Shown: one piece after another, positions 31,004 to 59,822 of the stretch | Position numbering within the stretch: the stretch's first letter is position 1 | How the letters are laid out: every line of letters begins with the position of its first letter | NCBI GenBank assembly: GCA_963675295.2 | Contig: CAXXKJ010000002.1 | Location: 3,136,001 to 3,200,000, forward strand | DNA: 64,000 bases | From: a bacterium | Lineage (GTDB): Bacteria; Electryoneota; Electryoneia; Electryoneales; Electryoneaceae | Direction: 5' to 3' | Notes under the pieces: model-generated | Seen by the model: the letters and a program-made list of their open reading frames with translations, nothing else | What the model was told of the DNA's origin: nothing | The model's database searches: none | Made by a program: the position numbers and the translations under genes

Positions 31004-31080
31004 GCGCCTGTAGCTCAACTGGATAGAGCACCTGACTACGGATCAGGAGGTTTGGGGTTCGAATCCCTACAGGCGTACCA
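31004..31080 (+). tRNA. tRNA-Arg(ACG)
   Basis: Cloverleaf: acceptor GCGCCTG/CAGGCGT, anticodon arm CCTGA-CTACGGA-TCAGG, GGTTCGAATCC T-arm, encoded CCA. Confidence 0.97.
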
Positions 31081-31087
31081 GTAATAT

Positions 31088-31126
31088 CAAGGGGTTACGG
31101 GCAACCGTAGCCCCTTGTTTTGTTTT
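31088..31126 (+). terminator. Intrinsic terminator after tRNA-Arg (near-copy at ~59772-59809)
   Basis: CAAGGGGTTACGG-GCAA-CCGTAGCCCCTTG plus T-rich tail. Confidence 0.75.
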
Positions 31127-31127
31127 C

Positions 31128-31248
31128 ATGGGGCACTGGTGGGGCAGTGTCCGCCAAAATCCTCAGCTTGTAGCAGCCATTCACCCCCCCGCCTTTTTGC
31201 CCCAGATTCCTGCATATTTACACGCTGAGTGCCCCGTGAGTGCCCCAC
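31128..31248. promoter_or_regulatory. Putative integrase arm-type sites: RTGGGGCA pairs with 11-bp period (31128/31139 forward; 31230/31241 inverted)
   Basis: The same paired motif recurs at the att-like ends (38445/38456, 59583/59594, 59812). Confidence 0.65.
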
Positions 31249-31324
31249 CAAACGCAAGAGCTACTAGAAATCTCATGTTTTATAAGGCTTTCAGAGGATT
31301 TTTCTTCTGAATGATAATCAGGTG

Positions 31325-31353
31325 TTGACTTCGCTCGGGGCTTTTTGTAGCTT
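31325..31353 (+). promoter_or_regulatory. Sigma70-type promoter of the integrase
   Basis: TTGACT-N17-TAGCTT. Confidence 0.5.
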
Positions 31354-31426
31354 GTTGGAGGTTGCTGGTGGGGGTCGTGTTGGACACGGCAGGGTTTCAC
31401 CGGCAGCGAAGCCCGGGAGAGGCACC

Positions 31427-32473
31427 ATGGCGAATATCGAACGCAGAAAAGCGAAAGACGGTTCAACATCCTACCGTGTGAAGATTCGTCTTCAGGGGCA
31501 CCCTACCGAAACCAAGACATTCGGCAAGCTGACAGAAGCCCGGGATTGGGCACAGGAAACCGAAGCCAACATTCGGGCGGGACGATATCTCCCCTCCATG
31601 GAAGCACGGAAGCACACGTTAAGCGATCTGGTGGATCGGTACCTTAAGAACGTGATCCCGGAAAAGAAATCCGGCAAGGATCAGGTGTACCAGCTTGAAT
31701 GGTGGCGTGATCGAATAGGGACGTATCCACTCGCCAGTGTAACGGCAGCACTGATTTCCGAATGCCGGGACGAACTGAAACAGAGCGGCAAGAGCAATGC
31801 AACGGTGAACCGGTTCCTTGCCGTGCTAAGCCATGCGTTCACCCTTGCCGAGCGTGAATGGGAGTGGATTGATTCCAACCCGTTCCGCAAGGTGTCCAAG
31901 CTGAAAGAACCGCGAGGGCGCGTGCGTTTCCTCTCCGATGAAGAACGTGAACGGCTGTTGACCGCGTGCCAGCAAAGCCATAATCCCGACTTGTACACCG
32001 TTGTTCTGCTCTCCCTGTCCACGGGTGCCCGAAAGATGGAGATTTGGGGACTTACGTGGGATCAGATCGACTTTGCCCGGGAAGTGATCGTATTGCACGA
32101 GACGAAGAACCAGGAACGCCGGGTTCTGCCGTTGAAAGGCAAGGCTCTGGACTTGATCCGTGAACGTTCCATGGTACGCCGGTTGGATACCAGATTGATT
32201 TTCCCGAGCACGTCGAACGCAAACAAGCCGATGGATTTTCGCAGTGCATGGGAAACGGCTCTCAAGCACGCGGAGATTGAAGATTTCCGCTGGCACGACC
32301 TCCGGCACTCGGCAGCGTCCTATCTTGCAATGTCGGGCGCTACTTCGGCAGAAATTGCAGCTGTGCTGGGGCACAAGACACTGTCCATGGTGAAACGGTA
32401 TTCCCATCTCAGCGAGGCTCACACGGCTTTGGTTGTCGAACGGATGAATAAGCTCTTTGTGGAGGGAGCATGA
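31427..32473 (+). CDS. Tyrosine recombinase / phage-type integrase
   Basis: N-terminal arm-binding-like MANIERRK..YRVKIR, TGARK.E, KN, HDLRH, LGH and RYSH catalytic motifs. Confidence 0.95.
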   Translation: MANIERRKAKDGSTSYRVKIRLQGHPTETKTFGKLTEARDWAQETEANIRAGRYLPSMEARKHTLSDLVDRYLKNVIPEKKSGKDQVYQLEWWRDRIGTYPLASVTAALISECRDELKQSGKSNATVNRFLAVLSHAFTLAEREWEWIDSNPFRKVSKLKEPRGRVRFLSDEERERLLTACQQSHNPDLYTVVLLSLSTGARKMEIWGLTWDQIDFAREVIVLHETKNQERRVLPLKGKALDLIRERSMVRRLDTRLIFPSTSNANKPMDFRSAWETALKHAEIEDFRWHDLRHSAASYLAMSGATSAEIAAVLGHKTLSMVKRYSHLSEAHTALVVERMNKLFVEGA

Positions 32474-33297
32474 AGAATGCACGCAGTGCATCCGTCATGA
32501 TGAAAATGCCGGACGGGCACGTGTCAAAGGGATATAATGGTGGCGAAATATTTGGTACTGTACGTTGGGTTGAGCCCAATGCACACGAAAAAGGGTATGA
32601 AGAGGAACGAGGCAAACTTGCCGCAGGGCGAATTTTTGGAACTGTAGGATGGTCACCTGAACAAGAACGTAAATGGATACCTTTAAAACAGCCTGTATCA
32701 CTTGCGCATCAAGATCCAAAGGGAATAAATCCAGAGGCTTGGTATACTCACGATGAAAGCATTGTTCCTGATAATTTTAGACCATATGAACAGGGATACG
32801 ATAATTCTGATGCATTTACAGAGTTTTTAAATCGTGCTAAATCCAACGACAGCGAATCAGCGGCAAGAATGCTAACAACATTTTTCTTGTATTTGAATGA
32901 TCCCCATATAATGCCTCCGATAATGCGTCAATTCCTTAGAGAGCTTCTATTTTTGCTGAGTCAGGGTGTTGATGTGCGCAAATTGATAGGCATTAAAAAA
33001 GGAAGTGGCAGAAAACGGAGAAATACTGACGAAGAAATACAAATTGCTGTTCGAGTAGAGGATTTGATACTTAAAGGTAATTCGCAAATAGGCGCTTGTA
33101 GGAAACTGATAGAGGAAGATCCCAATCTGACGGCTAAATATGAAACACAAAAAGGCCGCAAGGATGAGCCAGCAGCAGGAATTCGTAGGATACACAACCG
33201 CTACAGGAATGAGATTCGTGCCAAACGTGCACTTCCGGTTTCACCCGGTCACGGAATCATGTTGGGCAACATCATGGTGAAGATGGGTCCACCCTAA
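32470..33297 (+). CDS. Hypothetical protein (AT-rich, possible C-terminal HTH)
   Basis: ATGA overlap with int, GGAG RBS, terminator follows. No family recognised. Confidence 0.55.
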   Translation: MKNARSASVMMKMPDGHVSKGYNGGEIFGTVRWVEPNAHEKGYEEERGKLAAGRIFGTVGWSPEQERKWIPLKQPVSLAHQDPKGINPEAWYTHDESIVPDNFRPYEQGYDNSDAFTEFLNRAKSNDSESAARMLTTFFLYLNDPHIMPPIMRQFLRELLFLLSQGVDVRKLIGIKKGSGRKRRNTDEEIQIAVRVEDLILKGNSQIGACRKLIEEDPNLTAKYETQKGRKDEPAAGIRRIHNRYRNEIRAKRALPVSPGHGIMLGNIMVKMGPP

Positions 33298-33326
33298 GAG
33301 GATTTACTTCAGCTAGCTATCCGATC

Positions 33327-33359
33327 AACGGCCTCGAACTTTTTGAGGCCGTTTTTTTA
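33327..33359 (+). terminator. Intrinsic terminator
   Basis: AACGGCCTC..GAGGCCGTT stem plus T7. Confidence 0.7.
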
Positions 33360-33437
33360 TTCACAGAACTCACAGCTACTTCCGGGAAAACACAGGCAAA
33401 AAGCTTGCTGTTCAATCACCTACAACCGGAGGAAGTG

Positions 33438-33650
33438 GTGCATTCCCAAAGCGAAACTCGACGTTTGTACACCATCCGTGAAGCCGTTGAAGCTGGCTGG
33501 TGGCCCTCAGAATCCGGCTTACGCTGGCTCGTTTTCCGCAGTGCCCAAAACGGTCTCGGTCCTGTCATTCGCCGGATCAACGGCAGAGTGCTGTTAGACG
33601 AGAGCGAATGGTGGCGATGGGTGGATCAACACGCCGAAGCACGTTCCTGA
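33438..33650 (+). CDS. Excisionase/AlpA-like small DNA-binding protein
   Basis: LYTIREAV..PSESGLRWLVF..IRRINGRVLLD...W.RW winged-helix pattern. GGAGGA RBS. Confidence 0.65.
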   Translation: MHSQSETRRLYTIREAVEAGWWPSESGLRWLVFRSAQNGLGPVIRRINGRVLLDESEWWRWVDQHAEARS

Positions 33651-33784
33651 CTGACTACCTGCCGGAGAATCGCGTTCTACGTAAAAACCATGCCTGTACA
33701 GGCGGGTTTTCCGAACGATCTCCCGGAATTGGCAGGCAGGGACGTTTGTCCCCTTGTGATGAAAAAACGTGCTGAGGAAGCCCG

Positions 33785-34075
33785 ATGAATTCAACGAACA
33801 CAAAACGCCGGTCTGCCCGGTTAAAAGCACAACACGGAATCCTCTCGCCCCTGAAAGCGATCCGGGCGAATTGTCTGGATTGCATGGGCGGGAGTCCAAA
33901 GGCTGTCGCCGAATGCAACATTCCCGGCTGTCACTGTTGGCCCTATCGGTTCGGACGTAACCCGCAAGCGAACGATCTCCGCGCCCCTGTGTTCAACCGT
34001 AAGGGTGAGCTGGTAGGCTGGCAGGAGTGGCAAGGGTACGGTGAGCCCATGCGTTGCGAGCAGACGGAAGACTGA
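33785..34075 (+). CDS. Small Cys-rich (probable Zn-binding) phage/satellite protein
   Basis: PLKAIRANCLDC.GGS..V.EC....C..WPYRFG.NP motif. GAGG RBS. Confidence 0.6.
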   Translation: MNSTNTKRRSARLKAQHGILSPLKAIRANCLDCMGGSPKAVAECNIPGCHCWPYRFGRNPQANDLRAPVFNRKGELVGWQEWQGYGEPMRCEQTED

Positions 34076-35529
34076 GGCCGGTGCCTGCCGCAACCGACAA
34101 GGTGAGGCTGTCCCCTGTATCCAGCAACGGAACACAGTCAAACCCGAACCAGCCGGGGAAATGGGATCGTGTCCCCTCTCCCCTGCCGGAGTATCGCCAG
34201 TGGGTTGTATGGCAGGCAGAAGCCCGGGGAGACCGTACTGCCAAAGTGCCGATTGATCCGGTGACCGGCAAAAGGCTAGCGGACTGGCAGCACCCGAACC
34301 AGCACCTCAGTTTTTCGGAAGCTGTCCAGTATCACGCCGAGGGAATCGGGGACGGTATCGGATTCGTTTGCACCGGCACCGATGGACTTGTCTGGCTGGA
34401 CATTGACAAAGCCATTAACGAAGATGGGGAGCTTGCTGACGCTGTCTATGCCATGCTCCGGCAATTGGATGCACCCGGTGAACTATCGCTATCAGGTCAA
34501 GGCTATCACGTCCCCGTGTACGCCCCGAACGTTGCGCAAGCGATCCAAGCACAAGGTACAGGGAAACTCTTACTGGACGGCAAGCAACACGGGTTCGGCG
34601 GTCTCGAAGTATTCGTCACCAATTGCTTTATCGCGAATACCGGCGATTTCAGGAACCCGCAGCTCACCAAGGTTCCGAATCGGGATCAGGTATTAGACAG
34701 ACTGTTGCGCGAGATGTGGCCCGATAAGTGGCCTCCAGCGACAAGACAGGAAAGCTCCCCAGCCACATACACAAGCGGGACCGTTACAAAGAGCTCCCGT
34801 CCTGCGGCCCCGCTGTCGGAAGCCGATTCCATCATGCTGCAACGAATGCTATCCCAGAGGGACCGAGGGAAGTTTCGTAAGCTGTTTGGCAAGATAGACG
34901 CCCCTCCGCTCCCTATAAGCAACACACTCGGTTATGATACCCGATCTCACACAGATATGGCGCTGGCTTGCAAGGTTGCGTTTCGCTGTTTCGGCAAGAA
35001 CGGACGTGGGATTGACCAGGCTCGCCGGATCATGTGGGCCTCCCAGCTTAGACGGGACAAATGGAACGAGCGCCGGGGGACCACAACCTATCTTGATCTT
35101 ACGATTGCAGGGGCGCTCGAATTTGTTATGGCAAACGGTGGAGTCTGGAACGGCAACCCGAACAAGCGAGCGTACAAGTACAAACAACCGCCCGCAGCTC
35201 TGGTGCCACCAGTTCCCCGAGATCGGCTCGAAAAGGACACACTTTCTGAATCAAAGCTAATTGATCTCGATTTGAATGCAGCAGAACGTGCCACATACTA
35301 CGCTCTACGAGACCAGAATCGCGGAGATTCGTTTTGCCACCCTTCACAATCGTTCCTTGCCAAGAAACTCGGGATCACCGTCCGATCCGTTCGTAGCCAC
35401 ATCCGCTCGCTCGAAAAGGGGGGGATACTGATTTCCGAGCCGTGGCAGCGCCGCGACGGCAAGCGAAGCAAAGTGAACATGTATTGGTTCCTGAAGATAC
35501 CGGAAAATCTTTCCGGTGAACGCGAGTAA
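34054..35529 (+). CDS. Primase-polymerase (NrS-1-like AEP plus helical bundle) fused to a C-terminal HTH; start uncertain
   Basis: QWVVW..KVP, GIGFV, LDID, ELSLSGQGYH, EVF, TGD; S.TDMALA..RRDKW..TY; PSQSFLAKKLGITVRSVRSHIRSLEK.G HTH. Confidence 0.8.
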   Translation: MRADGRLRPVPAATDKVRLSPVSSNGTQSNPNQPGKWDRVPSPLPEYRQWVVWQAEARGDRTAKVPIDPVTGKRLADWQHPNQHLSFSEAVQYHAEGIGDGIGFVCTGTDGLVWLDIDKAINEDGELADAVYAMLRQLDAPGELSLSGQGYHVPVYAPNVAQAIQAQGTGKLLLDGKQHGFGGLEVFVTNCFIANTGDFRNPQLTKVPNRDQVLDRLLREMWPDKWPPATRQESSPATYTSGTVTKSSRPAAPLSEADSIMLQRMLSQRDRGKFRKLFGKIDAPPLPISNTLGYDTRSHTDMALACKVAFRCFGKNGRGIDQARRIMWASQLRRDKWNERRGTTTYLDLTIAGALEFVMANGGVWNGNPNKRAYKYKQPPAALVPPVPRDRLEKDTLSESKLIDLDLNAAERATYYALRDQNRGDSFCHPSQSFLAKKLGITVRSVRSHIRSLEKGGILISEPWQRRDGKRSKVNMYWFLKIPENLSGERE

Positions 35530-35775
35530 ACAGAACGCGCTTTTGTTAACAATGGCGCGGGTTTCAGCGTTTGAGGGTAGAATCTGGTAGGGTCACTCTA
35601 CGATACACAGGAAAAGAGGAGAAGGTGTACCCTACCACATTAAACAGCTGTCAGTGTAACACCTGTGATGTCTTCGAGTTAGACGGCGAATTTAGACGGT
35701 TTCACCGGAAAAGTGAGGGACATTATTCCGCTGGTGAAACAGTAGCAAACCGTAACATTCAGGAGGGATAATCGT

Positions 35776-36120
35776 ATGTCGTGGCCAAGACGAAGACGGC
35801 GAAGAAAAATGAGAGCGTTTTCCCTGTGTCGCCGGATGGACTTTCAGACACCGGCAGCGGCCATGCACTCGCCGTTGCTGAGGTGCATGTGGGAGATTCG
35901 ACGTGAACTTGAGGAGAACGGATTGCTCTACCGTGCGGAACTGGTGGCCTACCTGAGCCAGCCGTCCAGAAATGACAGCAGCGACGGCGAAACATACCAC
36001 CCTGCACGGATCTACCAGGCACTAAAAGTGCTGGAAGCTGGTGGCGAGGTAACACTCTGGCGATCATCCGATCCATACCGAACGCTTATCATGCACGTAC
36101 GCCCACCTTGGACCCGCTGA
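35776..36120 (+). CDS. Hypothetical small protein, possibly winged helix
   Basis: AGGAGG RBS. RIYQALKVLEAGGEV resembles a wHTH recognition helix and wing. Confidence 0.45.
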   Translation: MSWPRRRRRRKMRAFSLCRRMDFQTPAAAMHSPLLRCMWEIRRELEENGLLYRAELVAYLSQPSRNDSSDGETYHPARIYQALKVLEAGGEVTLWRSSDPYRTLIMHVRPPWTR

Positions 36121-36355
36121 ATTAGGTCACCTTGTATTTTCGCCATTTTATACCGTAACCTGTTGGTATTCAGAGGGTATCAATTTCCCATATACTGCGC
36201 ATTTGCAGGAAACCGCACGTTGACTACCCACCTCTGAGAGCAAAAGCAAACCCCAGCGATAAACAGCGTTGGGGTTTTCGTGAATCTGCGTACAATAACC
36301 CTTACTTTGTGAACCAACTAGCATTGTTCAGATACCCGATCTGGAGGACGGGACG

Positions 36356-38440
36356 ATGAAGATACAGTTATCAGTGTTAGCCCTAATGTTGCTCCCATTT
36401 GTGACCTTAGGCCAGATAAGCTGGGATATCCACTACATTTCGCCAGATCATGACGGAGCATCATTCGTTTCAGCGACTGATCTGGATCAAGATGGTGATA
36501 TGGATTTATTAGGTACCGCATCAACTGATAATGATCTTATCTGGTGGGAAAATGTATACGGTGATGGTAATACTTGGAATGAACGTACAATAGACTATGA
36601 TATACTATCACCTTTTTGTGCTTTAGCCACTGATCTTGATCTTGATGGTGATTTAGATATTTTAGCGGCCTCAAGTGGTGACAATAGAGTTATATTTTAT
36701 AAAAATCTAACGGGAAACGCTTTAGATTGGGAACTAAACTATATTTCAGATTCTTGGTCAGGCGCTCTCATTATAGACTTTGGAGATTTTGACCAAGATG
36801 GTGACACGGATGTGGTTGCAGCAGCAGAAGTAAATGGTTCCGGAATAAATTGGTGGGAAAACCAGAATCAAGGAACAACTTGGTTAGATAATGACCTTAC
36901 TGATAGTGCTGCAAGATCTGTACACGTTGCCGATGTTTCTGGAGATGGTGTTCCTGATATAATCGGCGGCATTAATGGAGACTTGAAAGTTTTTAAAAAC
37001 CTTAATGGAGGACAAAGTTGGTGGATTGTTGGAATTTCCGACTTTGCTCATCCTATTGACATTACCAGCGGTGACTTTGACAATGATAGTGACTTGGATT
37101 TTTGCGTTGCTGGAGGGGACGAAGTTCTGCTGTATGAAAACAGTGGTGACGGCGTAAGCTGGATAGAACATGCCATTTCCTCGAATTTTTCAGGTGCACA
37201 TAGTGTCTACGCTGTTGATGTTGACTGCGATGGTGATCTCGACTTGGTGGGTGCTGCCTCAACAGCGGGAAAAATCGTCTGGTGGGAAAACACTCAGGGA
37301 TTGAGTCTCTGGCTTGAACATACGATCTCGGATTCATTCCCTGGGGCATACAACGTTTGTGCATCAGACATTAACGGTGACGGGTTGCCCGATGTTTCAT
37401 GTGCCGGGAATGGACAATTTGTCTGGTGGGAGCAGCTTGCGCCACCTTACACAGAACTTCAGCTTGCTTCCCCGAACGGGGGTGAAGCATGGCGTCAGAA
37501 CACCGTACACGACATTCAGTGGGAATCTAGCTCGGACCAAGATGTGGTAATCGAGCTTCTGCTTGGCCCAACAGTCGAACGCGTCATCTCCGGCGGTACG
37601 GACAACGACGGTGTGTTTGAGTGGACGATCCCGGATGACGCGACGCCGGGCGATAACTACCGTATCCGAGTCATCCTGGCAGACGGTTCGGAGCAGGACG
37701 TCAGCGACGCAGCGTTTGCAATTACAGCACTGCCAACCTTGTCTATAGAGCCCATCCTCCCCCCGATCATCATTCCCGCGTCAGGTTACGGCTTCTGGTA
37801 TTGGCTTGAGATCGGCAACCCTTCACCGTTTGAGGGCACCGGTCAGTATTGGTCTGAGGTTGTTCTACCTAGTGGCAACACATTCGGTCCGTTGTCTGTC
37901 AACCTACTCACCATCGAAGCCTTTGGCTCCTACGTCCCCGATGAACCACTAGCGCAATGGATACCGGGATACGCCCCTGCTGGTACGTACCAGTACGTGA
38001 TGCACGTGGGCATTTACCCGAACATGATAGTCGCCACAGACAGCTTCGAGTTCGAAAAGCTCGCCGGTTCGAGTGTGGCCTCCCTGCCGGAGTCTGCATG
38101 GAAGGTTGAAGACTGGCAGAATTCCGCATGGGAACAGGCAAGCGCGGCGGTCACAGGCACGGAGTCCCTCCCAACTGCTTTCAGCGTCTCCCCTGCGTAC
38201 CCGAATCCCTTCAACGCAAGTACCTCGCTCACGGTGTCGCTACCCGAACCGGCAGAACTGACGGTTACCGTCTATGACGTGCTCGGGCGGGAAGTGGCTA
38301 CTCTGGCACATTGTCAACACTCCGCCGGGGAACACCGTCTGACGTTCGGCGCCTCGAATCTTGCCAGCGGTTTATACTTCATCCGTGCTACCGTACCCGG
38401 ACATCTCGACCAGGTGCAGAAGGTGATGCTGGTTAGGTGA
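36356..38440 (+). CDS. Secreted FG-GAP repeat protein with SPNGGE Ig-like domain, second Ig-like domain and YPNPFN tail (island cargo)
   Basis: Signal peptide, seven D-x-D-x-D-G-D-x-D-like repeats with WWEN, SPNGGE.W, AYPNPFNA. Confidence 0.88.
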   Translation: MKIQLSVLALMLLPFVTLGQISWDIHYISPDHDGASFVSATDLDQDGDMDLLGTASTDNDLIWWENVYGDGNTWNERTIDYDILSPFCALATDLDLDGDLDILAASSGDNRVIFYKNLTGNALDWELNYISDSWSGALIIDFGDFDQDGDTDVVAAAEVNGSGINWWENQNQGTTWLDNDLTDSAARSVHVADVSGDGVPDIIGGINGDLKVFKNLNGGQSWWIVGISDFAHPIDITSGDFDNDSDLDFCVAGGDEVLLYENSGDGVSWIEHAISSNFSGAHSVYAVDVDCDGDLDLVGAASTAGKIVWWENTQGLSLWLEHTISDSFPGAYNVCASDINGDGLPDVSCAGNGQFVWWEQLAPPYTELQLASPNGGEAWRQNTVHDIQWESSSDQDVVIELLLGPTVERVISGGTDNDGVFEWTIPDDATPGDNYRIRVILADGSEQDVSDAAFAITALPTLSIEPILPPIIIPASGYGFWYWLEIGNPSPFEGTGQYWSEVVLPSGNTFGPLSVNLLTIEAFGSYVPDEPLAQWIPGYAPAGTYQYVMHVGIYPNMIVATDSFEFEKLAGSSVASLPESAWKVEDWQNSAWEQASAAVTGTESLPTAFSVSPAYPNPFNASTSLTVSLPEPAELTVTVYDVLGREVATLAHCQHSAGEHRLTFGASNLASGLYFIRATVPGHLDQVQKVMLVR

Positions 38441-38444
38441 TCTT

Positions 38445-38624
38445 GTGGGGCACTCGTGGGGCAGTGTCCCCAAGAATTCCCCGTAAATCTCAATAACAAC
38501 AGGCAGGAAAGAACCGGCTATCTATCAATTATTCCTACTGTTACCGCTTGTGATTTGTTGTGTATTTTGCACTGGATTGGACTGGGGGTCAGGGGGTCGC
38601 TGGTTCAAATCCAGTCGCTCCGAC
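38445..38624 (+). other. Internal att-like site: 137-bp arm plus 3' half of tRNA-Pro(GGG) (38580-38624)
   Basis: GA-CTGGGGG-TCAGG-GGGTC-GCTGG-TTCAAAT-CCAGT-CGCTCCG-AC. The arm aligns without gaps to 59583-59719. Confidence 0.85.
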
Positions 38625-38633
38625 ACTGGAACT

Positions 38634-38664
38634 AAAGGGGTTAGGTTCTGCCTGATCCTTTTTT
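38634..38664 (+). terminator. Probable tRNA-type terminator after the tRNA-Pro fragment
   Basis: AAAGGGGTTAGG-TTCTG-CCTGATCCTTTTTT hairpin. Confidence 0.55.
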
Positions 38665-38774
38665 CTATATCCCATCGAACACTTGTGATAAACATCACTG
38701 AGCCCCTTGAGGAGAGTAACCCAACGTGATGTGTTTCCGCCGTACCTTATTTTCGTGCCCGTTCCGGGGGAGGT

Positions 38775-42435: not shown

Positions 42436-42596
42436 TCACTCTCACCCCGATGTAGTTCCAGCCTGGGCGAAATCACCCATCTCCCTGTTTCGCCCCTCGC
42501 AGATCCGCCCGGCGCGGGCGTTTTCGCGCGCCAACGCCGCCTCAGACGAAGCCTCTAAGCTAATGATTACCAGTATGTTGCCCGTCATCCGCACGA

Positions 42597-48145: not shown

Positions 48146-48219
48146 TTCCATCGAATAGGGAAACGACGACCCGCAGACCTGAAGCTTGGGCACAGGCCTG
48201 CGGTTGTGGGAGATAAACG

Positions 48220-49290: not shown

Positions 49291-50117
49291 AGCACTCTTC
49301 CGCACGAGTGCTGCCGGGATTCGGCCTGTCACTGGGCATAACCGTCACCGGACTGTCGCTGTTCGTGCTGATCCCGATCGCGGTGCTGTTCCTGCGTGCG
49401 ATGGGCATCACGGTCGACAAGTTCGTCACCGAGGTGTTCTCCGAGCGTGCGATGGCGACGTACCGCGTCACCATCGGGATGGCATTTCTCGCGGCGGTGG
49501 TCAACGTGATCATCGGAGTGCTGATCGCTTGGACATTGACCCGGTACAGCTTTCCCGGCAAGCGGCTGCTTGACGGGATGGTAGACCTGCCGTTCGCCCT
49601 GCCGACTGCTGTCGCCGGGATCACGCTAGCTGTGTTGTACGGACCCAATGGCTGGATCGGTTCGTTGTTTGGGCACCTCGGGGTACAGATCGCGTTCACA
49701 CCGGTCGGGATTTGGCTCGCGATGATCTTCATCGGGATGCCGTTCGTGATCCGGTCGGTCCAACCGGTGCTGGAAGAATTTGACCCGTCCCACGAAGAGG
49801 CGGCGTCCAGTTTAGGTGCGAAGCCGTCTGCTGTGTTCCGCCGGGTGATCCTGCCGACGCTGCTGCCATCCATCCTGACCGGCTTTTCGCTGGCGCTGGC
49901 GCGCGGTTTGGGTGAATACGGGTCGGTGATCTTCATCGCCGGGAATCTGCCGTACGATACTGAGGTCACCTCGCTGTACATCGTCGCCCAACTCGAGGAA
50001 TACGATTACCAGGGCGCAACCTCCATCGCGGTGATGATGCTCGTCATCTCGTTCCTGATGTTGATGGCGTTGAACCTGATCCACCGTCTGCTCCCCTCGC
50101 AGGAGGGTGACCGGTGA
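49287..50117 (+). CDS. cysT: Sulfate ABC transporter permease CysT (CysU)
   Basis: VLPGFGLSLG, DLPFALPTAVAG, EEAASSLGA, ARGLGEYGSVIFIAGN. Confidence 0.93.
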   Translation: MKHSSARVLPGFGLSLGITVTGLSLFVLIPIAVLFLRAMGITVDKFVTEVFSERAMATYRVTIGMAFLAAVVNVIIGVLIAWTLTRYSFPGKRLLDGMVDLPFALPTAVAGITLAVLYGPNGWIGSLFGHLGVQIAFTPVGIWLAMIFIGMPFVIRSVQPVLEEFDPSHEEAASSLGAKPSAVFRRVILPTLLPSILTGFSLALARGLGEYGSVIFIAGNLPYDTEVTSLYIVAQLEEYDYQGATSIAVMMLVISFLMLMALNLIHRLLPSQEGDR

Positions 50118-51175
50118 ACAACTCACGGTTCCATCCAACCAACGAACGTGGCCGCGTCTGCTTGCGGACGCGGACCGACCGGATCGCGACGACAATCGAA
50201 CGTGACCGTGTCTCCCCAATCCAGCCACGGTCTGCCTCCGGGTTGAGCGACGCTGACGGAGTGGTCAGCACGCAGGCACAGTCTGGCGACGTGACGGCGG
50301 GCGTGTTGCGCCCTCCTCGTCCTCAACCCGTATTCCCGTCCACCCGCACCTTCCTGTCCGCGCGGGTGGTTCTGACCACCTGCACCATCGTGCTGATGAG
50401 TCTGCTGCTGATTCTGCCGCTGGTGCAGGTGTTTCTCGCCGCGTTTCGCAACGGGGCCGGGTTCTGGCTCAGCACGCTGACCGATCCGTTCACCCTGTCA
50501 GCGTTGAAATTAACTGCCATCGCCGTGCTGATCGCGGTGCCGTTGAACACGGTGTTCGGCATCGCGGCGGCGTGGTTGCTGACCCGTCACCGAGTCCCGG
50601 GACGCAGTGCGATCCTGACCCTGATCGATCTACCTTTCAGCGTGTCGCCAGTAGTCTCGGGACTGATGTTCATCCTCATCTTCGGCGCGCATTCGGCGCT
50701 TGGCGTGTGGCTGATCGAGCACGGTGTCCAGGTTGTGTTTGCCGTGCCCGGGATCGTGTTGGCGACGGTGTTTGTCACCTTCCCGTTCGTCGCGCGCGAA
50801 CTGATCCCGGTGATGGAAGCGATCGGGCCTGAAGAGGAGATGGCGGCGGTCAGCCTCGGCGCGCGTGGCTGGCAGATGTTCCGCCGTATCACCCTGCCAA
50901 ACATTCGCTGGGGGTTGCTGTACGGCATCATCCTGTGTACCGCCCGCGCGGTCGGTGAGTTCGGCGCGGTGTCGGTTGTGTCGGGGCATATCCGTGGCCG
51001 GACCAACACCCTGCCGCTGCACATCGAAGTCCTGTTCAACGAATACCAGACCGCCGCGGCGTTCGCCGTCGCCAGTGTGCTCACCCTGTTCGCCGTGTTC
51101 ACGCTGGTCATCAAGGAAGTGGTCTCACGACGGCTGGCGATCACCGAACCCGCAGGTCATGAGGGCAACGCATGA
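50114..51175 (+). CDS. cysW: Sulfate ABC transporter permease CysW (long N-terminal extension)
   Basis: [57 protein letters not shown]. Confidence 0.92.
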
Positions 51176-52242
51176 GCATCCGTGTCGAATCGATCACCAA
51201 ATCCTGGGGCAATTTCACCGCGCTGCGGGACATTTCGCTGGACGTTCACGACCACGAGCTGCTGGCGTTACTCGGGCCGTCCGGATCAGGCAAAACCACT
51301 CTGCTGCGCATCGTCGCCGGCCTCGAAACCGCCGACCATGGCGAAATTTACCTGCACGACGAGAAGGCGACACATCATCACGTGCGCAACCGGCGGATCG
51401 GTTTCGTCTTCCAGCATTACGCCATTTTCCGGCACATGACGGTCTTCGAGAACATCGCGTTCGGACTGCGTGTCCGGCCACGGAAAGAGCGTCCCAGCGA
51501 ATCTGAGATCCACAAGCGAGTACATGAGCTGCTGAATCTCGTCCACATCGAACAGTTCGCATACCGGAAACCGTCGCAGCTGTCCGGCGGGCAACGGCAA
51601 CGTGTCGCGCTCGCCCGTGCGCTGGCGGTGCAGCCGAAAGTGCTGCTGCTCGATGAACCGTTCGGCGCGTTGGACGCCCGCGTGCGTCAGGAACTGCGCG
51701 GCTGGTTGCGCAACCTGCAGAAGGAGCTCGGCATAACCACGGTGATGGTCACGCACGATCAGGAAGAGGCGATGGAAGTCGCCGACCGGATCGTGATCAT
51801 GAACGAGGGCCGGATCGAACAGGCCGGCAGCCCGAACCAGCTGTGGGAACACCCGGCCAACGCCTTCGTCTTCGATTTCCTCGGCAACTCGAACCTCTAC
51901 CACGGCCTGGTGCACTCCGGCTTCATCGAGCTGCCCGGCTGGAAGATGCGGTCCAACGGCTGGCCGGAAGGCGGCGAAGTGGATGTCGGCGTGCGAACTT
52001 TTGATGTGCGTATCGCACCGTCGCGGAATGGCTCCGGTCGAGTGAAGCGGCTGATCTCTTCCGGGGAATTCGTGCGGCTCGAAATTGAATTACCGCAGGA
52101 GAAGCGTCTCAACGCTCAGATTCACAAGTGCGACCCGTCCCTGGTCGGCGTCCAGGAGGGGACTCCGGTCCGTTTTGAACCACTGAAAGCCTTTGTATTC
52201 CACGATCAGGTAACCACGGGGGTGCCTTTGACCGTTCACTGA
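51172..52242 (+). CDS. cysA: Sulfate ABC transporter ATP-binding protein
   Basis: [45 protein letters not shown]. Confidence 0.93.
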
Positions 52243-56219: not shown

Positions 56220-56779
56220 CCCAGGCACTGAAGCGGGTACGGGATCTGATGATCTCGTTGGAACAATACGCCATCGTCGAGGAACAGGCGACGCTACTGG
56301 ACGCCCTGTATGCGCTGGACCGGGCGCAGTCCCATGTGCGTAACAACGGCCATCAGCATCGTGCGGTGCTGGTGCGCAGCCATGGTGGACGCATCGTCGG
56401 CAAGATCGGCCACCTCGCGTTCCTGCGGGCGTTGCGGACGGTGCATGACGACCCGCGCGGCGAAGACCGGTTGCGGCGGGCTGGAGTCGATCAGGAGATG
56501 ATCCGCCGCTCGGAAGGGTTCTACCGGCTGCTCAGCGAGGATGTCACCGACCTGTGTGGCAAGGCGCGCACGATCAAGGCGCGTGAGGCGATGCGTCCGG
56601 TCAGCGAGCGGATTGGTGTCGACGAAAGCCTGATGGATGCATTGGACGCCTTCGAGCGTTGGCAGACCCTGTCGCTGCTTGTCACCGACAACGGCAGCGC
56701 GGTTGGAATTTTACGCGCGGTTGACCTGTTTGACGAAATCGCCACGACGATGAAACGCTGTGCTCAGGGGGAGAAGTGA
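56216..56779 (+). CDS. CBS-domain protein
   Basis: VRDLMI.L..Y..V...ATL.DA, HRAVLV, VGKI, VGILR..DLF. Confidence 0.8.
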   Translation: MTQALKRVRDLMISLEQYAIVEEQATLLDALYALDRAQSHVRNNGHQHRAVLVRSHGGRIVGKIGHLAFLRALRTVHDDPRGEDRLRRAGVDQEMIRRSEGFYRLLSEDVTDLCGKARTIKAREAMRPVSERIGVDESLMDALDAFERWQTLSLLVTDNGSAVGILRAVDLFDEIATTMKRCAQGEK

Positions 56780-56783
56780 GCTG

Positions 56784-58844
56784 ATGTCGCGAATCCTGCT
56801 GGTAGACGATGAGGAACGGTTCCGGCAATCGCTGTCGGAACGGTTGGAATTGCGCGGGTATGAGACGGTCGGTGCGTCCAACGGCGAGGATGCAATCAAG
56901 CACATCCGCGCCAACCGTGACATCGAAGTGGTCGTGCTCGACAGGAAGATGCCCGGCATGAGCGGCGAACAGACGCTCAAGGAAATGAAGGAATTCCGTC
57001 CGGAGTTGCAGGTCGTCATCCTTACCGGGCATGGCGACCTGGAGTCGGCCAAAGAGGCTGGGAAGCTGGACGCGTTCAACTACCTCAGCAAGCCGGTTGA
57101 TCTGGATCAGCTGATCACGATCATCGAAGCCGCGCGCGAGGAGAAAACATACGCAGCTGCGCGCTATGAGGTCCCCGCCATAGAACGTGGATCGGCGTGG
57201 AAGTGGCTGCTCGGGTCACACAATTCCCGGCCGCTGTTCATCATCGCCGGGCTGCTGATCTTTACCGTGCTGGCAATGATGCCGGTGCCGCAACGATTGG
57301 TCACCTTGGTCAGCACGCCGAAAGCTCCGGCGGGTTCGGACATCACGGTGGACGCCGACATCCAGGGCTACGCCGACTACCGCAAAATGAAACCGGGCGC
57401 GACGGTTGCCGATTTCTACAGCGAAAAAAATGACATGATGCGGGAGGTCGTTGCGGACGACGGGTCGCACGGCAAAGCCCCGATGCTGCCCGAGCAGACC
57501 GCCCGCCGTGCGTTGATCATGCTTGCGCTGATCGTGCTGGCGGCGCTGTTCTGGGCGTCCGGGGCGGCACCGGTGGGTGTGACCGCGTTGCTGGTCGGTG
57601 TGGTGATGTACATCGGCGACATCCTCCCACCTGACCGTATCGCGCAGGCCTTCGCGAAGGACGCCGTCATCTTCATTTTCGGCGTGCTGGCGTTGTCGAA
57701 AGCTATCACCAAGACCGGGCTTGATCGTCGCATCGGTCTGTTCCTGCTCGCCCCTGCCAAAAACCTGACGCTGCTTCTGCTGCTGTTCCTGCCGATGCTG
57801 TCGGTGACCTGCTCGTTCGTCAGCGAACACGCGCTGGTCGCGTTCACGATGCCGTTGTTCGTGATGGTTTACGGCAACACGATGCGTACGCTGAACATCA
57901 AACGCGACCGGTCGTTGATGGTGATGTTCGCGCTCGCCCTCTGTTACGCCGCCAACTCCGGCGGGCCGGGATCTCCGGCGGCGGGCGGACGTAACGCGAT
58001 CATGGTCGGTATCCTCGCCGACTACGGCATCGCACCCAGTTTCAGCGAGTGGGTGACCTACGGCCTGCCGCTGGTGCCGGTGATGTCGTTCTGCGTCGGA
58101 CTGTATTTCTGGCTCACGTTGCGCCGGAAAACGCAGGTGAAAACGTTGAACGTGAACAGCATCGTCCGGCGCGCGTCGGAAAAAATCGGCCCGATGACGC
58201 GCGAGGAATATGTCACCTTGTTCGTGCTGCTCGGCGTGATCGTGTTGTGGGTGACCATGTCCGACAAGCTGGGTATGGGCGGGCCGGTCATCTTCGGATT
58301 GGTCGTGCTCAACCTGTTGCGGGTGCTGAGCTGGCGTGATATCGCGGGGATCCACTGGGAAGTGGTGTTCCTGTACGCATCCGCCAGCGCCATCGGGAAG
58401 GGACTGGCGGTCACCGGTGGTGCGCTGTTCATGGCGGACGGTTTCGTCAGCATCCTGCCGGACATGATGCGTTCCGGGGTCGGGCTGGCGGTCGCGACCA
58501 GCATTTTTACGGGCACGGTCACCAATTTCATGAGTGACGGCGCAACGGTCGCCGCGATCGGGCCGATCACGGTTCCGATGGCGACCATCGCCGGGATCCA
58601 CCCGTGGATGGTCGGTTTTGCGACGGCGTACGCGTCTTCGTTTGCGCACATGCTGATCATCGGGACACCGTCCAACGCGCTGGCGTTCGCGTTGGCGAAA
58701 GACCCGGTCACCGGCGAACAGCTGGTTACGCTCGGCGATTTCCTCAAGCACGGCGCAGCGATCCTTGGCATCTCGTTTGTGGTGCTATGGCTGTGGGCGT
58801 TCTTCGGCTACTGGCAATGGATCGGCTTTCCGGCGGTTGGGTAG
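56784..58844 (+). CDS. Receiver domain fused to SLC13/DASS anion transporter
   Basis: REC (VDDE, DRKMPG, LTGHG, KP) then many TM helices with SFVSEH, ANSGG.GSPAAGGRN, TNFMSD, GTPSNA. Confidence 0.88.
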   Translation: MSRILLVDDEERFRQSLSERLELRGYETVGASNGEDAIKHIRANRDIEVVVLDRKMPGMSGEQTLKEMKEFRPELQVVILTGHGDLESAKEAGKLDAFNYLSKPVDLDQLITIIEAAREEKTYAAARYEVPAIERGSAWKWLLGSHNSRPLFIIAGLLIFTVLAMMPVPQRLVTLVSTPKAPAGSDITVDADIQGYADYRKMKPGATVADFYSEKNDMMREVVADDGSHGKAPMLPEQTARRALIMLALIVLAALFWASGAAPVGVTALLVGVVMYIGDILPPDRIAQAFAKDAVIFIFGVLALSKAITKTGLDRRIGLFLLAPAKNLTLLLLLFLPMLSVTCSFVSEHALVAFTMPLFVMVYGNTMRTLNIKRDRSLMVMFALALCYAANSGGPGSPAAGGRNAIMVGILADYGIAPSFSEWVTYGLPLVPVMSFCVGLYFWLTLRRKTQVKTLNVNSIVRRASEKIGPMTREEYVTLFVLLGVIVLWVTMSDKLGMGGPVIFGLVVLNLLRVLSWRDIAGIHWEVVFLYASASAIGKGLAVTGGALFMADGFVSILPDMMRSGVGLAVATSIFTGTVTNFMSDGATVAAIGPITVPMATIAGIHPWMVGFATAYASSFAHMLIIGTPSNALAFALAKDPVTGEQLVTLGDFLKHGAAILGISFVVLWLWAFFGYWQWIGFPAVG

Positions 58845-58965
58845 CAGCGGGCAATCCGGGAGGCGGCCCCGGGGAGTCGCGCGCAGGATGGCCCGGGTCG
58901 TCTTGCGACCCGGATATCAAGCAACAAACGGACCTGAGTCTGGACATCAGGAAGGATCATCGATC

Positions 58966-59505
58966 ATGACTACGCAGAACGACACACACAGCGGCGCGGC
59001 GCCGGACGAAACATGGTCGGGCACTCCGATCCGGCTGTTGATCATCGACGACGAGACCAGTTTCCTCAATGCCATCGCCCAGCGGTTGCAGATGCGCGGG
59101 TTTGACGTCACCACCGCCAGCAACGGCACCACCGCCATCGAGATCGCGCGCAAGCACAAGTTCGATCTTGCACTGCTCGATTTGAAGATGCCCGGCATGA
59201 GCGGCAAGCAGGTGCTGGAAGTGCTGAAGCAGGAGCACAAGTTCATTGAAGTGGTGATTCTGACCGGGCATGGCTCGCTGGACAGCGCGGTCGAATGCAC
59301 CAAGCTCGGCGCGTTCGGCTACCTGCCGAAACCGTACGAACTGGACAGTCTGCTCGACACGTTGAAGGATGCGTTCACCGCACGGATGAGGAAGAAATTC
59401 GAATCCGACCAGGATCGCATGGACGAGATCGTAAATCTCGCGACCGGCGAGAGCGCGCTCGGCATCCTACGCCGGCTGAAGGAGATGGACACGACCGAGA
59501 AATGA
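58966..59505 (+). CDS. Stand-alone response regulator receiver protein
   Basis: IIDDE, LDLKMPG, LTGHGS, KPY. Confidence 0.88.
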   Translation: MTTQNDTHSGAAPDETWSGTPIRLLIIDDETSFLNAIAQRLQMRGFDVTTASNGTTAIEIARKHKFDLALLDLKMPGMSGKQVLEVLKQEHKFIEVVILTGHGSLDSAVECTKLGAFGYLPKPYELDSLLDTLKDAFTARMRKKFESDQDRMDEIVNLATGESALGILRRLKEMDTTEK

Positions 59506-59582
59506 ATCAGGTGATGATGGCATCATTCGTAGTACCTGCCATCAGAAACAAGTACCGGTAGTGTTTTAACTAGTGTTTTTCC

Positions 59583-59822
59583 ATGGGGCACTCATGGGGC
59601 AGCGTCCCCAAGAAATCCCCGTAAATCACAATAACAAGAGGCAGGAGAGAACTGGCTATCTCGCAATTATTCCTATCGTTAGCGATTGTAGTATGTTGTG
59701 ATTATTGCAGTTCACAGAACTACGGATCGGGAGGTTTGGGGTTCGAATCCCTACAGGCGTACCAGAAATAGCAAGGGGTTACGGGAAACCGTAGCCCCTT
59801 GTTTTGTTTCCATGGGGCACTG
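59583..59822 (+). other. Right att site: 137-bp arm, tRNA-Arg 3' half (59719-59764), and copy of the post-tRNA terminator/arm sequence
   Basis: Direct repeat of 31035-31138. The upstream arm is homologous to 38445-38581. Confidence 0.9.

Follow-up and report, generated by a model that had tools for sequence, protein, structure and literature searches.

The closest described relatives of the locus reported here are the tRNA islands of Islander class 'A' (a Williams-type classification with anticodon-centred attP; PMC4383910) and accretion elements of the ICESt1/ICESt3 type with their CIMEs (PMC5704250). In the sections of the Islander account drawn on here, such islands have a tyrosine integrase beside an intact tRNA gene and, at their far end, the displaced 3′ fragment in direct orientation, with an identity block starting at the anticodon loop and tandem arrays at one tRNA gene; all of these features recur at our locus. 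The tandem-array rule in those sections is one integrase per member, whereas two of the three members here have none, and here an inner fragment comes from another tRNA, Pro inside an Arg array. Accretion, in the part of PMC5704250 drawn on here, sets an integrase-bearing element in tandem with integrase-less att-bounded relatives, with an inner att site and possible composite excision, again as here; there all sites share one target gene, while here the inner site belongs to the other tRNA and one arm is lost. The same sources already describe tandem accretion with integrase-less members (PMC5704250) and frequent target switching in integrase evolution (PMC4383910). Since both processes are known, the locus is best valued as an unusually clean natural snapshot.

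The window is the whole stretch of DNA analysed, 64,000 nt of contig CAXXKJ010000002.1 (assembly GCA_963675295.2; G000 below), and coordinates refer to it unless prefixed by a contig. The explanation we favour, and as a whole hold with somewhat better than even confidence, is that 31004-59822 is the first and sole integrase-bearing unit of a ~42-kb tandem island array in tRNA-Arg(ACG), with modular att sites and a relic Pro site left by recombination or accretion between siblings. The features, in order, are:

31004-31080, + strand: intact tRNA-Arg(ACG), attL (ARAGORN); the 3′ half from 31036 (anticodon loop) is element-supplied
31081-31126, + strand: terminator hairpin of the Arg cassette (from sequence; a sister species matches at 92.5% through 31124)
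31127-31321, + strand: P′ arm, with a direct arm-site pair at 31128/31139 and an inverted site at 31241 with an adjacent near-copy
31322-32473, + strand: tyrosine integrase (Pfam Phage_integrase 5e-31, Int_N 1e-9; phrog_1 3e-73); probable start ATG at 31427, giving 348 aa
32470-33297, 33500-33775 and 33785-34075 (span 32470-34075), + strand: three ORFs without family, no match in Pfam, PHROGs or NCBIfam
34054-35529, + strand: primase-polymerase type replication protein with C-terminal HTH (Pfam NrS1-1_pol-like_HBD 8e-11, HTH_36 6e-9; phrog_1829 DNA primase 7e-38)
36356-38440, + strand: FG-GAP repeat protein with type IX secretion (T9SS) C-terminal sorting domain (Pfam), the cargo gene of the element, stopping 4 nt ahead of the next arm
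38445-38581, + strand: P1, inner P-type arm, last 11 nt Pro-type
38582-38665, + strand: Pro cassette, the 3′ 44 nt of tRNA-Pro(GGG) from the anticodon loop plus terminator, an orphan half-site
38699-59505, + strand: Y, integrase-less module of 20.8 kb (Pfam)
59583-59719, + strand: P2, outer P-type arm (attR arm), last 11 nt Arg-type
59720-59807, + strand: displaced 3′ 45 nt of tRNA-Arg(ACG) plus terminator, attR core of the 28.7-kb unit
59808-59945 (end approximate), + strand: Q, a further degenerate P-type arm, opening the next, integrase-less array member
60135-64000, + strand: start of block X, with a CpeT/CpcT-family gene at 60135-60842 (Pfam)

The tRNA-Arg(ACG) is the single tRNA that ARAGORN finds in the window. 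Between attL and 59720-59822, a direct repeat that begins at the anticodon loop, includes the terminator and reaches the first arm site, 98 of 103 positions are identical, including the whole 7-nt loop. Judged by sequence, the 28.7-kb unit is bounded at 31036 and 59720 by a matched Arg-type attL/attR, which would be the only att pair that could excise it. The sister species G001 has an empty site, with V, tRNA-Arg and Z contiguous, and C2:3167081-~3209071 of G000 is therefore a ~42-kb insertion. A preliminary description had closed the structure at 59822, which was wrong: this position falls inside the arm-like sequence of Q, which aligns locally to P1 positions 2-104 (z 6.6, 0/200 shuffles as good) and resembles P′ in its first 32 nt only. 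X leaves the window and reaches C2:3208838, closing with a degenerate arm and a mutated Arg fragment; the inserted array thus runs on for ~13 kb, beyond the window, up to a third Arg-like fragment at C2:3208988.

Pfam searches of the 24 largest ORFs in 31004-59822 (7 in the 7.5-kb element E1, 17 in Y) found the integrase at 31322-32473 and no other, nor any conjugation or relaxase gene. A tblastn search with this integrase gave no match within 38637-59582, which upholds the earlier claim of a single integrase in the interval.

P1 and P2 align without gaps at 111/137 identical positions (81%); random pairs of 137-nt windows (n=199,110) average 35.1 (sd 5.6), with one sampled pair as high as 112. 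Both arms open with a pair of RTGGGGCA sites at 11-nt spacing (38445/38456 and 59583/59594). The window contains 11 such sites against 4.63 expected, a count attained in 1 of 100 shuffles, and eight of them lie within att arms (31128, 31139, 31241 on the minus strand, 38445, 38456, 59583, 59594 and 59812). Position 138, counted from the arm start, is base 1 of the 7-nt anticodon loop in both: CTGGGGG (Pro-GGG) at 38582, CTACGGA (Arg-ACG) at 59720. Identity to the tRNA 3′ ends is 100% for the 45 nt starting at 38580 (host tRNA-Pro(GGG)) and 97.8% for the 46 nt starting at 59719 (tRNA-Arg(ACG)). After the loop the Pro fragment has the same 3′ stem, TCAGG, as the intact tRNA-Arg; at 59720 the Arg fragment reads TCGGG. 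The preliminary description had reported gapless arms of ~80% identity, paired sites at both arm starts, an anticodon loop 137 bp downstream and a shared TCAGG stem with different loops, and was right in each respect.

That description had also named an assembly error between two islands, at the homologous arms, as a possible undoing. Such a join, there or at the 45-nt tRNA-Pro repeat, is highly improbable. The genome does hold three copies of the 45-nt Pro segment, and at this one the public contigs are interrupted, the first reaching 38608 and its successor beginning at 38602; no single public contig bridges it with 31 nt on either side. Against an error, arms of 81% identity are too unlike for collapse, the terminator behind the inner Pro copy is unique, and the genome is in 2 contigs. 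Exact public contigs cover the region from both sides: one of 6,769 nt runs from 31840 through P1 and 27 nt of the Pro cassette, and one of 2,985 nt runs from within the cassette into Y; both come from three runs of one sample. A second sample gives an exact 580-nt contig (38596-39175) across the cassette-to-Y junction. These data may be the assembly's own source, and hence are not independent.

The host tRNA-Pro(GGG), 530 kb from the studied locus, carries the CCTGA/TCAGG stem that had been predicted for it and is occupied, again as anticipated, by a sibling island, E3, with the same arm sites. A Pro fragment belonging to E3 follows 9.8 kb downstream. From the P′ arm to integrase codon ~204 the left ends of E3 and E1 are 90-95% identical, with a different tRNA and terminator part; the E3 integrase remnant (residues 5-204) is 92% identical to the integrase described here. 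The CCTGA/TCAGG stem is found in 5 of 50 tRNA genes, and the longer pattern GCACCTGA-N7-TCAGGRGG is common to Arg(ACG) and Pro(GGG) only among these 50. Outer arm P2 agrees with the Pro-type E3 arm, P3, at 116/126 positions and then at only 5/11, while inner arm P1 agrees with it at 107/126 and then at 9/11; by these counts the last 11 nt of an arm track the tRNA and the remaining arm tracks lineage. Apart from a 1-nt indel in the copy Pw, five sibling arms keep the same register as far as the anticodon loop, which is that of Pro-GGG in two of them, of Arg-ACG and Arg-CCT in one each, and of a mutated Arg in the fifth. Between siblings the arms are 84-95% identical, and ~100 nt, made up of 11 nt left of the loop, the tRNA 3′ half and the terminator, varies with the tRNA. 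G002 has the same arm pair joined to Arg-CCT, and G008 has it joined to Lys-CTT. A second island in G000, located at tRNA-Asn(GTT), is built alike: inside it a sibling arm is followed by a tRNA-Arg(ACG) fragment.

Homologs of the integrase lie next to 12 different tRNA species in 24 of 35 loci, and well-supported sister integrases use different tRNAs, in a tree whose backbone is unresolved (13 of 25 inner branches open). An integrase 67% identical, from another genus, sits at tRNA-Pro(GGG); the possibility raised earlier that homologs never use tRNA-Pro is contradicted by this case. The earlier proposal that the family retargets by swapping its overlap keeps its main point, conserved arms and integrase with a differing core, but the swapped unit is a cassette of ~100 nt that takes in 11 nt left of the loop, not the 7-nt overlap alone.

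Could the inner site still work, so that the circle of a dual-target element or true switching intermediate uses the outer attP to enter tRNA-Arg or the inner core to enter tRNA-Pro? We think this quite unlikely, although much about the site would suit it. The core flanks (GCACCTGA / TCAGG) are the same in both tRNAs, whose loops differ at 3 of 7 positions; the arm sites agree in sequence and spacing, the sole intact integrase of the genome adjoining RTGGGGCA arms stands beside them, and the inner Pro core matches the 3′ end of the host tRNA-Pro without a mismatch. In old members lacking an integrase, by contrast, the displaced fragments are mutated mainly in loop and stem (7/17 there vs 1/28 elsewhere, p=0.003; 5/17 vs 1/26, p=0.03). 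Heterobivalent integrases such as those of lambda and HP1 normally need both arms for integration, and no P′ arm is detected behind the Pro cassette, arm similarity in 38626-38700 staying at z≤1.7. The host tRNA-Pro site is moreover already taken by E3, and public contigs gave no evidence of a circle or alternative junction; joints of 85% likeness among them are probably paralogous sequence. The second usable att core of the preliminary description thus lacks support, and the inner arm and tRNA-Pro fragment (38445-38665) are more probably the inactive relic half-site of a Pro-specific sibling. The terminator behind this fragment is akin to that of E3 yet different, and is unique to this copy.

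Y encodes histidine kinases, response regulators, two sigma-54 activators, an APS kinase, an alginate-export-like porin, a sulfate ABC transporter and a response-regulator/Na-sulfate symporter fusion. Its GC is ~0.60, like that of the flanks. In tblastn of the genome (E≤1e-10) its sulfate-binding protein matches itself only, and its two sulfate permeases match themselves and each other only. G001 has a homolog of Y, 88% identical in nucleotides, that follows a P-type arm (z 11-12) and is bounded on both sides by 3′ fragments of tRNA-Arg(CCT). Y was not found with a kinase query in the other two genomes of the genus, where the best matches were ~30% paralogs; its gene order recurs partly in another genus, at 43-76% protein identity. 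The homolog of X in G001, 84.7% identical, stands directly downstream of tRNA-Pro(GGG) with no att remnants there. Y and X thus occupy different tRNA contexts in the two species.

An unlikely origin for this arrangement is capture resembling specialised transduction, in which an element in tRNA-Pro(GGG) excised aberrantly with its attR and the 21 kb of Y, later entering tRNA-Arg. The order P arm, Pro 3′ half, terminator and chromosome-like DNA is that of an attR with its right flank; Y has genome-like GC, housekeeping-type genes and a sulfate ABC transporter lacking a second copy by tblastn; and the inner Pro terminator is unlike that of E3, as expected from the tRNA-Pro locus of another lineage. 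X, the DNA downstream of tRNA-Pro(GGG) in the sister species, shows that tRNA-Pro-adjacent material did reach the array. In that species, however, tRNA-Pro(GGG) is followed by X and not Y, and Y between its tRNA-Arg(CCT) fragments is island-borne in both species; the failure to find Y in the two other genomes with the kinase query also speaks against capture. An aberrant excision product would, furthermore, be without a proper attP, and the outer ends here are a well-matched arm pair.

Alternatively, Y and X may be native DNA rather than mobile modules, moved to tRNA-Arg by homologous recombination between the sibling islands at tRNA-Arg and tRNA-Pro or between the T9SS tail genes preceding arms; we find this rearrangement, with either substrate, very doubtful. 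In the sister species X does look native at its place after tRNA-Pro, and T9SS tails that could serve as substrates number well over a hundred in the genome. A T9SS-tail gene ends within ~10 nt of the arm at four of the six P arms with upstream sequence read (P1, C2:3208851, C1 and G002 L188; not P2 or G008 L190), and by eye the last codons of the X tail gene in G000 are those of the E1 cargo gene, not of the G001 ortholog. Yet the loci are 530 kb apart in direct orientation, so a single exchange would delete the interval and a series of steps is required; tRNA fragments also flank Y in the sister species; and a complete attL/attR pair still stands at the tRNA-Pro locus of G000.

The best reading remains that Pro-type and Arg-type siblings formed a cointegrate or accreted, leaving the Pro site as a relic and not as a second functional core. 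It is nearest to one of the three options first offered, a chimera of Pro and Arg siblings with 21 kb captured, except that the 21 kb seems not to be simply captured cargo: Y has the look of a pre-formed module without an integrase, and in the sister species it is likewise associated with an island. The integrase would be a heterobivalent, HP1/lambda-like recombinase whose N-terminal domain may bind the repeated RTGGGGCA sites of the P and P′ arms, while its core-binding domain would read the anticodon stem and strand exchange would fall in the 7-nt anticodon loop; the ~100-nt cassette would name the target tRNA, arms and integrase staying constant. Recombination or accretion between siblings, with crossovers in the homologous arms or integrase region, could then have linked Y to the 7.5-kb driver element with its integrase, primase and T9SS cargo gene. 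As the nearest relatives of the outer arms and integrase are all Pro-type, the Arg frame is probably derived and the inner Pro site may record an earlier target; this direction rests on one truncated relative (E3) and one 67% homolog, since the search for a closer sibling with full-length integrase gave at best 68% (16 family genomes) and 62% (metagenome contigs).

Several observations fit the preferred reading less well. Homologous recombination works poorly on an arm of 137 nt with 81-92% identity, and no mosaic breakpoint fixing the crossover was found inside P1 or P′. A cointegrate is expected to have a second P′-integrase after the Pro cassette; none is detectable, and a clean deletion must therefore be assumed. 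The simple model does not predict P-type arms at P′ positions, as seen before X (the Q arm) and before Y in G001, and Y resembles ordinary chromosome in its GC and in a sulfate transporter for which tblastn gave no second copy. What the locus offers is an Arg island with a leftover Pro docking end, from an element family apparently re-aimed at new tRNA genes by a short cassette swap.

Comparison with other systems sharpens this picture. Relative to ICESt1/ICESt3, the element has a primase-type replication gene, and it resides in a bacterium that has type IX secretion rather than in a streptococcus. Among solved structures the integrase comes closest to the HP1 integrase catalytic domain (1aih, 1e-15); the R, HxxR, H and Y motifs align and are conserved, and the N-terminal Int_N domain and repeated arm sites on both sides of the core are likewise of HP1/lambda type. 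From the lambda 'saf' site-affinity changes and the overlap-identity rule, a changed overlap is expected to retarget such enzymes; the natural swap here appears larger, ~100 nt against the 7-nt overlap alone. Lambda gal/bio-type transducing genomes also show an attR-like half-site followed by chromosome-like DNA within a mobile element, but our locus keeps a full matched att pair, and its 'captured' DNA is bounded by tRNA fragments in the sister species.

The window (C2:3136001-3200000) holds one tRNA gene, tRNA-Arg(ACG) (found with ARAGORN), and the integrase-bearing element E1 lies next to it. Beyond E1 come a half-site of another tRNA, the integrase-less module Y and a second, Arg-type end.

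Features of the island (window positions)
31004-31080: tRNA-Arg(ACG), intact
31081-38581: E1, 7.5 kb, GC 0.43-0.57 (surroundings about 0.60)
38445-38581: P1, the inner, Pro-type arm
38582: CTGGGGG, followed by the last 44 nt of tRNA-Pro(GGG)
38699-59505: Y, with histidine kinases, response regulators, two sigma-54 activators, APS kinase, a porin, a sulfate ABC transporter and a response-regulator/sulfate-symporter fusion
59583-59719: P2, the outer, Arg-type arm
59720: CTACGGA, followed by the last 45 nt of tRNA-Arg(ACG)

Aligned without gaps, P1 and P2 agree at 111 of 137 positions, against a mean of 35.1 (sd 5.6, n=199,110) for randomly paired 137-nt windows. Each arm opens with two RTGGGGCA sites spaced 11 nt apart and stops exactly at the 7-nt anticodon loop. 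RTGGGGCA occurs 11 times in the window against 4.63 expected, a count reached by 1 of 100 shuffles, and 8 of the 11 copies fall within att arms. The displaced fragment at 59719-59764 is the 3′ part of tRNA-Arg(ACG), in the same orientation as the intact gene at the other end (97.8% over 46 nt), and attL (31036) and attR (59720) have 98 of 103 positions in common, so that 31081-59719 is bounded by a coherent Arg-type pair. Identity begins 1-2 nt ahead of CTACGGA at the Arg site and of CTGGGGG at the Pro site, and crossover was presumably at the anticodon loop. The anatomy reported in the preliminary description (the arms, their paired sites, and the loops at 38582 and 59720) is confirmed, and the feature is real.

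Contents of E1
P′ (integrase-side) arm: a direct arm-site pair plus one inverted site
Tyrosine integrase: Pfam PF00589 (5e-31), Int_N PF24624 (1e-9), phrog_1 (3e-73)
Three ORFs: no family match
Replication protein: primase-polymerase type, with HTH
FG-GAP protein: type IX secretion (T9SS) sorting domain, ending 4 nt ahead of the inner arm

The best solved relative of the integrase is HP1 integrase (1e-15), to which its R...HxxR...H...Y set aligns (TGARKME, HDLRHS, LGHKT and KRYSH in the translation). RTGGGGCA pairs in both P and P′, together with the Int_N domain, predict arm-plus-core (heterobivalent) binding. Compared with phage satellites and PICI-like elements, E1 holds an integrase and a primase-type replication protein, its three other small ORFs being without family match; no packaging-related gene was recognized. 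The C-terminal ~200 residues of the FG-GAP/T9SS protein gave well over a hundred tblastn matches across the whole genome; such tails form a very large family of paralogs, and their conserved 3′ ends are often found right beside island arms. Elsewhere in the window, a low-GC stretch (0.37-0.41) at 6100-9550 carries three minus-strand ORFs, two with FG-GAP or T9SS sorting-domain matches and one without match; single RTGGGGCA sites lie at 6113(+) and 9987(-).

A host tRNA-Pro(GGG) with a CCTGA/TCAGG stem and a sibling island had been predicted. We found it 530 kb downstream on the same strand (C2:3700103-3700177, one of 50 tRNA genes in the genome), with anticodon arm GCACCTGA-CTGGGGG-TCAGGGGG and the sibling, E3, in place. 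The order after the tRNA is P′ arm, integrase remnant, 8.7 kb of unrelated cargo, P arm (P3), and Pro fragment at 3709946. The remnant covers residues 5-204 at 92% identity to the E1 integrase and continues into what is left of a T9SS tail. E3 is not composite in the same manner: beyond this integrase/T9SS-tail scar no arm or cassette was detected (z<=1.5). The E3 cargo, which includes a secretin gene, had no match in three genus relatives and did not inform the mechanism.

E1 and E3 share a left end that is 90-95% identical between the first arm site and integrase codon ~204; ahead of that site their tRNA 3′ halves and terminators differ. Over the arm it is the Arg-type P2 that matches P3 better (116/126, against 107/126 for the Pro-type P1), whereas in the last 11 nt ahead of the loop P1 matches at 9/11 and P2 at 5/11. 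This split shows the att site to be modular: conserved arms flank a cassette of ~100 nt comprising the 11 nt, the loop, the tRNA 3′ half and the terminator. The CCTGA/TCAGG stem is found in 5 of the 50 tRNAs, and the extended GCACCTGA...TCAGGRGG in Arg(ACG) and Pro(GGG) only, so that one core-binding specificity could serve both. Tyrosine recombinases require identity of the overlap, and by analogy the 7-nt overlap, with 3 differences, would decide between the two genes.

The tRNA-Arg(ACG) site is empty in the sister species G001, of the same genus. There the upstream DNA, the gene and its terminator run straight into DNA that in the genome under study starts after C2:3209071, and thus ~42 kb has been inserted. 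The inserted order is E1, Pro half-site, Y, P2 with the Arg fragment, Q, X, and a degenerate arm with an Arg-like fragment; Q (59808-59945) is a degenerate P-type arm (z 6.6) and X a 12.6-kb block. These make a tandem array of two units, 31081-59719 and 59765-C2:3208987, with the Arg fragment between them and no integrase in Y or X. The array does not keep to one target gene, the inner site at 38582 being tRNA-Pro(GGG) within a tRNA-Arg(ACG) array.

The G001 counterpart of X (84.7% identical over 12.6 kb) follows tRNA-Pro(GGG) directly, and no arms or tRNA fragments were found with it. The Y copy of G001 (88% identity) has internal deletions removing transporter genes; it sits behind a P-type arm (z 11-12) and between two 3′ fragments of tRNA-Arg(CCT) (91% over 45 nt and 93% over 29 nt). 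X and Y are therefore each in different tRNA contexts in the two species. On its contig (C72, loci L013 and L014) the G001 copy lacks segments matching window 39183-48393, 48746-50693 and 50935-51565, among them the sulfate transporter genes. P-type arms also lie directly after a tRNA fragment and terminator, where P′ would be expected, at window 59808-59945 and at ~14478-14600 of L013; these arms precede the integrase-less blocks X in the genome under study and Y in G001. A CpeT/CpcT-family gene (phycobiliprotein lyase type; Pfam 5e-16) at window 60135-60842, in a genome rich in T9SS proteins, is conserved beside tRNA-Pro(GGG) in the sister species.

The simplest account, which we hold to be somewhat probable, is that Pro-type and Arg-type siblings recombined in their homologous arms or integrase region; along an alternative path, the composite would have been built at tRNA-Pro and then re-framed by an Arg-type sibling. 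Either way the Pro cassette would have been left inside as a relic. The account draws on the outer arms and integrase being nearest to a Pro-type element, on an inner Pro half-site with no detectable P′ arm, and on the integrase-less state of Y. On this account a second P′-integrase copy, which would be expected, must have been lost, and the P-type arms before X and before Y in G001 are not predicted.

Y could alternatively be flank of tRNA-Pro captured by aberrant excision. This is unlikely: in G001 Y is not beside tRNA-Pro but island-borne, although the history of X keeps the idea alive. Nor, judged by G001, the sole informative relative, is the DNA after the inner half-site the native neighbor of tRNA-Pro(GGG), as specialised transduction would have it; there the X homolog follows tRNA-Pro(GGG). 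No tRNA-Pro(GGG) locus was retrieved from G002, and in G003 the 7 kb downstream of the gene match neither Y nor X. Y itself is genome-like in GC, and no integrase was found in it. In a tblastn search of the genome (E<=1e-10) the Y sulfate-binding protein had no match beyond itself, and each of the two Y permeases matched just itself and the other. A rearrangement of native chromosome by way of the abundant T9SS-tail repeats is an improbable source of this structure.

The inner Pro site could alternatively be an active second core. Its tRNA copy is perfect, while the cores of old fragments are mutated: in the last Arg-like fragment (C2:3208988-3209032) changes fall at 7 of 17 loop/stem positions against 1 of 28 others (p=0.003). 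But the P′ arm is missing and the tRNA-Pro site is occupied, and we consider an active core decidedly unlikely. Past the Pro cassette, 38626-38700 was searched for the remains of a P′ arm, with nothing significant (z<=1.7); there ~10 of 20 positions resemble the arm pair by eye, to which we give no weight. The earlier interpretation is partly right: of its three options, the chimera of Pro- and Arg-site siblings gains support, whereas none was found for the second usable core, next to which no P′ arm is detectable. Another old displaced fragment, at C1:~154200-154240, has 5/17 loop/stem mutations against 1/26, and in the fragments of old integrase-less members the T arm and acceptor have hardly changed; their recombination cores may have been inactivated, or else crossover takes place farther 3′, beyond the loop.

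Joining two islands by misassembly at the homologous arms is very improbable. When the assembled contigs of four public runs (one study, two samples) were mapped against 30400-50399, three runs of one sample gave exact contigs for 31840-38608 and 38602-41586, and the second sample gave one for 38596-39175. The contigs break inside a 45-nt triple repeat and may stem from the assembly's own data. No circle or restored-empty-site joint was seen in the contigs of the four runs, contigs being a form of data that drops rare forms. Many apparent joints appeared at 85% likeness, e.g., 38433 back to 31034, with short sides (20-65 nt); these were rejected as circles and taken instead for contigs of paralogous T9SS-tail, arm and kinase-gene sequences.

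Five sibling P arms in the genome align in register, save for a 1-nt indel in one copy (Pw). The loops that follow them are Pro-GGG (two arms), Arg-ACG, Arg-CCT (on the second replicon) and a mutated Arg. In the related genomes G002 and G008 this arm pair lies ahead of an Arg-CCT and a Lys-CTT fragment, respectively. The exact pair occurs in 53 stretches of public genomes, with an integrase homolog within the 8-kb locus in 14; by rough estimate ~17 of the 53 could be chance matches, and evidence is limited to those with integrase and tRNA adjoining. The integrases at such loci, in Acidithiobacillus, Legionella, Coxiellaceae and others, are 42-64% identical to that of E1, and the specificity of arm binding seems, from these sequences, to be conserved across phyla. 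The exact 20-nt arm-site pair was noted beside such integrases and tRNA genes in Proteobacteria including Competibacteraceae (loci L038-L086).

At 24 of 35 integrase-homolog loci a tRNA gene (12 kinds) lies <=1.2 kb upstream on the same strand. Use of tRNA-Pro by homologs, on which the earlier interpretation leaned, was found, with Pro-GGG at two loci (one with a 67% homolog from another genus); Arg-ACG is also used at two. A tree of 28 integrases (homologs aligned over >=300 aa, the 7 shorter left out) has supported sisters using Arg-ACG and Thr-CGT, and one tight clade holds Arg-TCT, Arg-CCT and Gly-CCC users. Its backbone has 13 of 25 inner branches open, and it gave no placement of the E1 integrase next to Pro-GGG or Arg-ACG users. 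Such differing tRNAs of sister integrases agree with the frequent target switching stated in the Islander work (PMC4383910).

Searches for a closer intact Pro-type sibling found homologs in 10 of 16 family genomes (best outside the genome under study 68%) and, in a metagenome scan, 75 loci (best 62%); the arm motif with <=2 mismatches was found at three places in two of five related genomes. None of these searches helped to order the events. The genome also carries, at tRNA-Asn(GTT) (C2:2770712-2796006; L021, L022), a composite island put together in the same way. Its integrase is 61% identical, and its arm sites form a pair of different sequence (GGTGCA...GAGGTGCA). A sibling arm is followed by an inner tRNA-Arg(ACG) 3′ fragment at 2783851, and the Asn fragment lies at 2795962. 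Behind that inner fragment, 5.6 of ~12 kb was searched and showed no synteny in genus relatives, only a 550-nt repeat, which did not inform the mechanism. ARAGORN also reported three oddities, C2:4439111-4439194 (4-base anticodon tttc), C2:720395-720476 (tRNA-Ile(AAT)) and C2:3307719-3307792 (a second, odd tRNA-Ala(GGC)), which may be pseudo-tRNAs or island-borne tRNAs.

The tRNA targets of integrases change often in evolution, yet the stages in between are seldom observed, since two elements under comparison have as a rule diverged in arms, integrase and core alike. Here a single genome has siblings with 84-95% identical arms, a 92% identical integrase remnant and different tRNA cassettes with sharp borders, and both types of cassette are present in one island. 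The result is a concrete, testable picture of retargeting, in which arm sites and anticodon-stem core stay the same while overlap and tRNA 3′ half are exchanged. The siblings also offer natural sequence pairs for att x att assays, and the case bears on finding or re-aiming integrases for genome engineering. More speculatively, and we regard this as doubtful, one integrase with one set of arm sites could be programmable to any fitting anticodon stem (Arg-ACG/Pro-GGG, GCACCTGA/TCAGG), the target being set only by the ~100-nt cassette. The one intact integrase, at 31322, would then also drive the integrase-less Y, X, E3 and C1 element between tRNA genes, and the inner Pro site would still serve, or would lately have served, as an alternative address. 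In sister species, large and metabolically useful blocks travel from one tRNA locus to another as modules that lack an integrase; one such block carries a sulfate ABC transporter with no second genomic copy found by tblastn.

A literature search for a heterotypic inner tRNA fragment or for site switching in islands turned up no description of such an arrangement, a result that is not proof, subscription journals lying largely outside the search. Tandem accretion of integrative elements with integrase-less relatives has been described (PMC5704250), and our array is like it in comprising such relatives; unlike the accretion described there, its inner site names another tRNA. The island combines known kinds, namely tRNA island arrays, accretion and integrase target switching, and what sets it apart is a cleanly preserved cassette swap.
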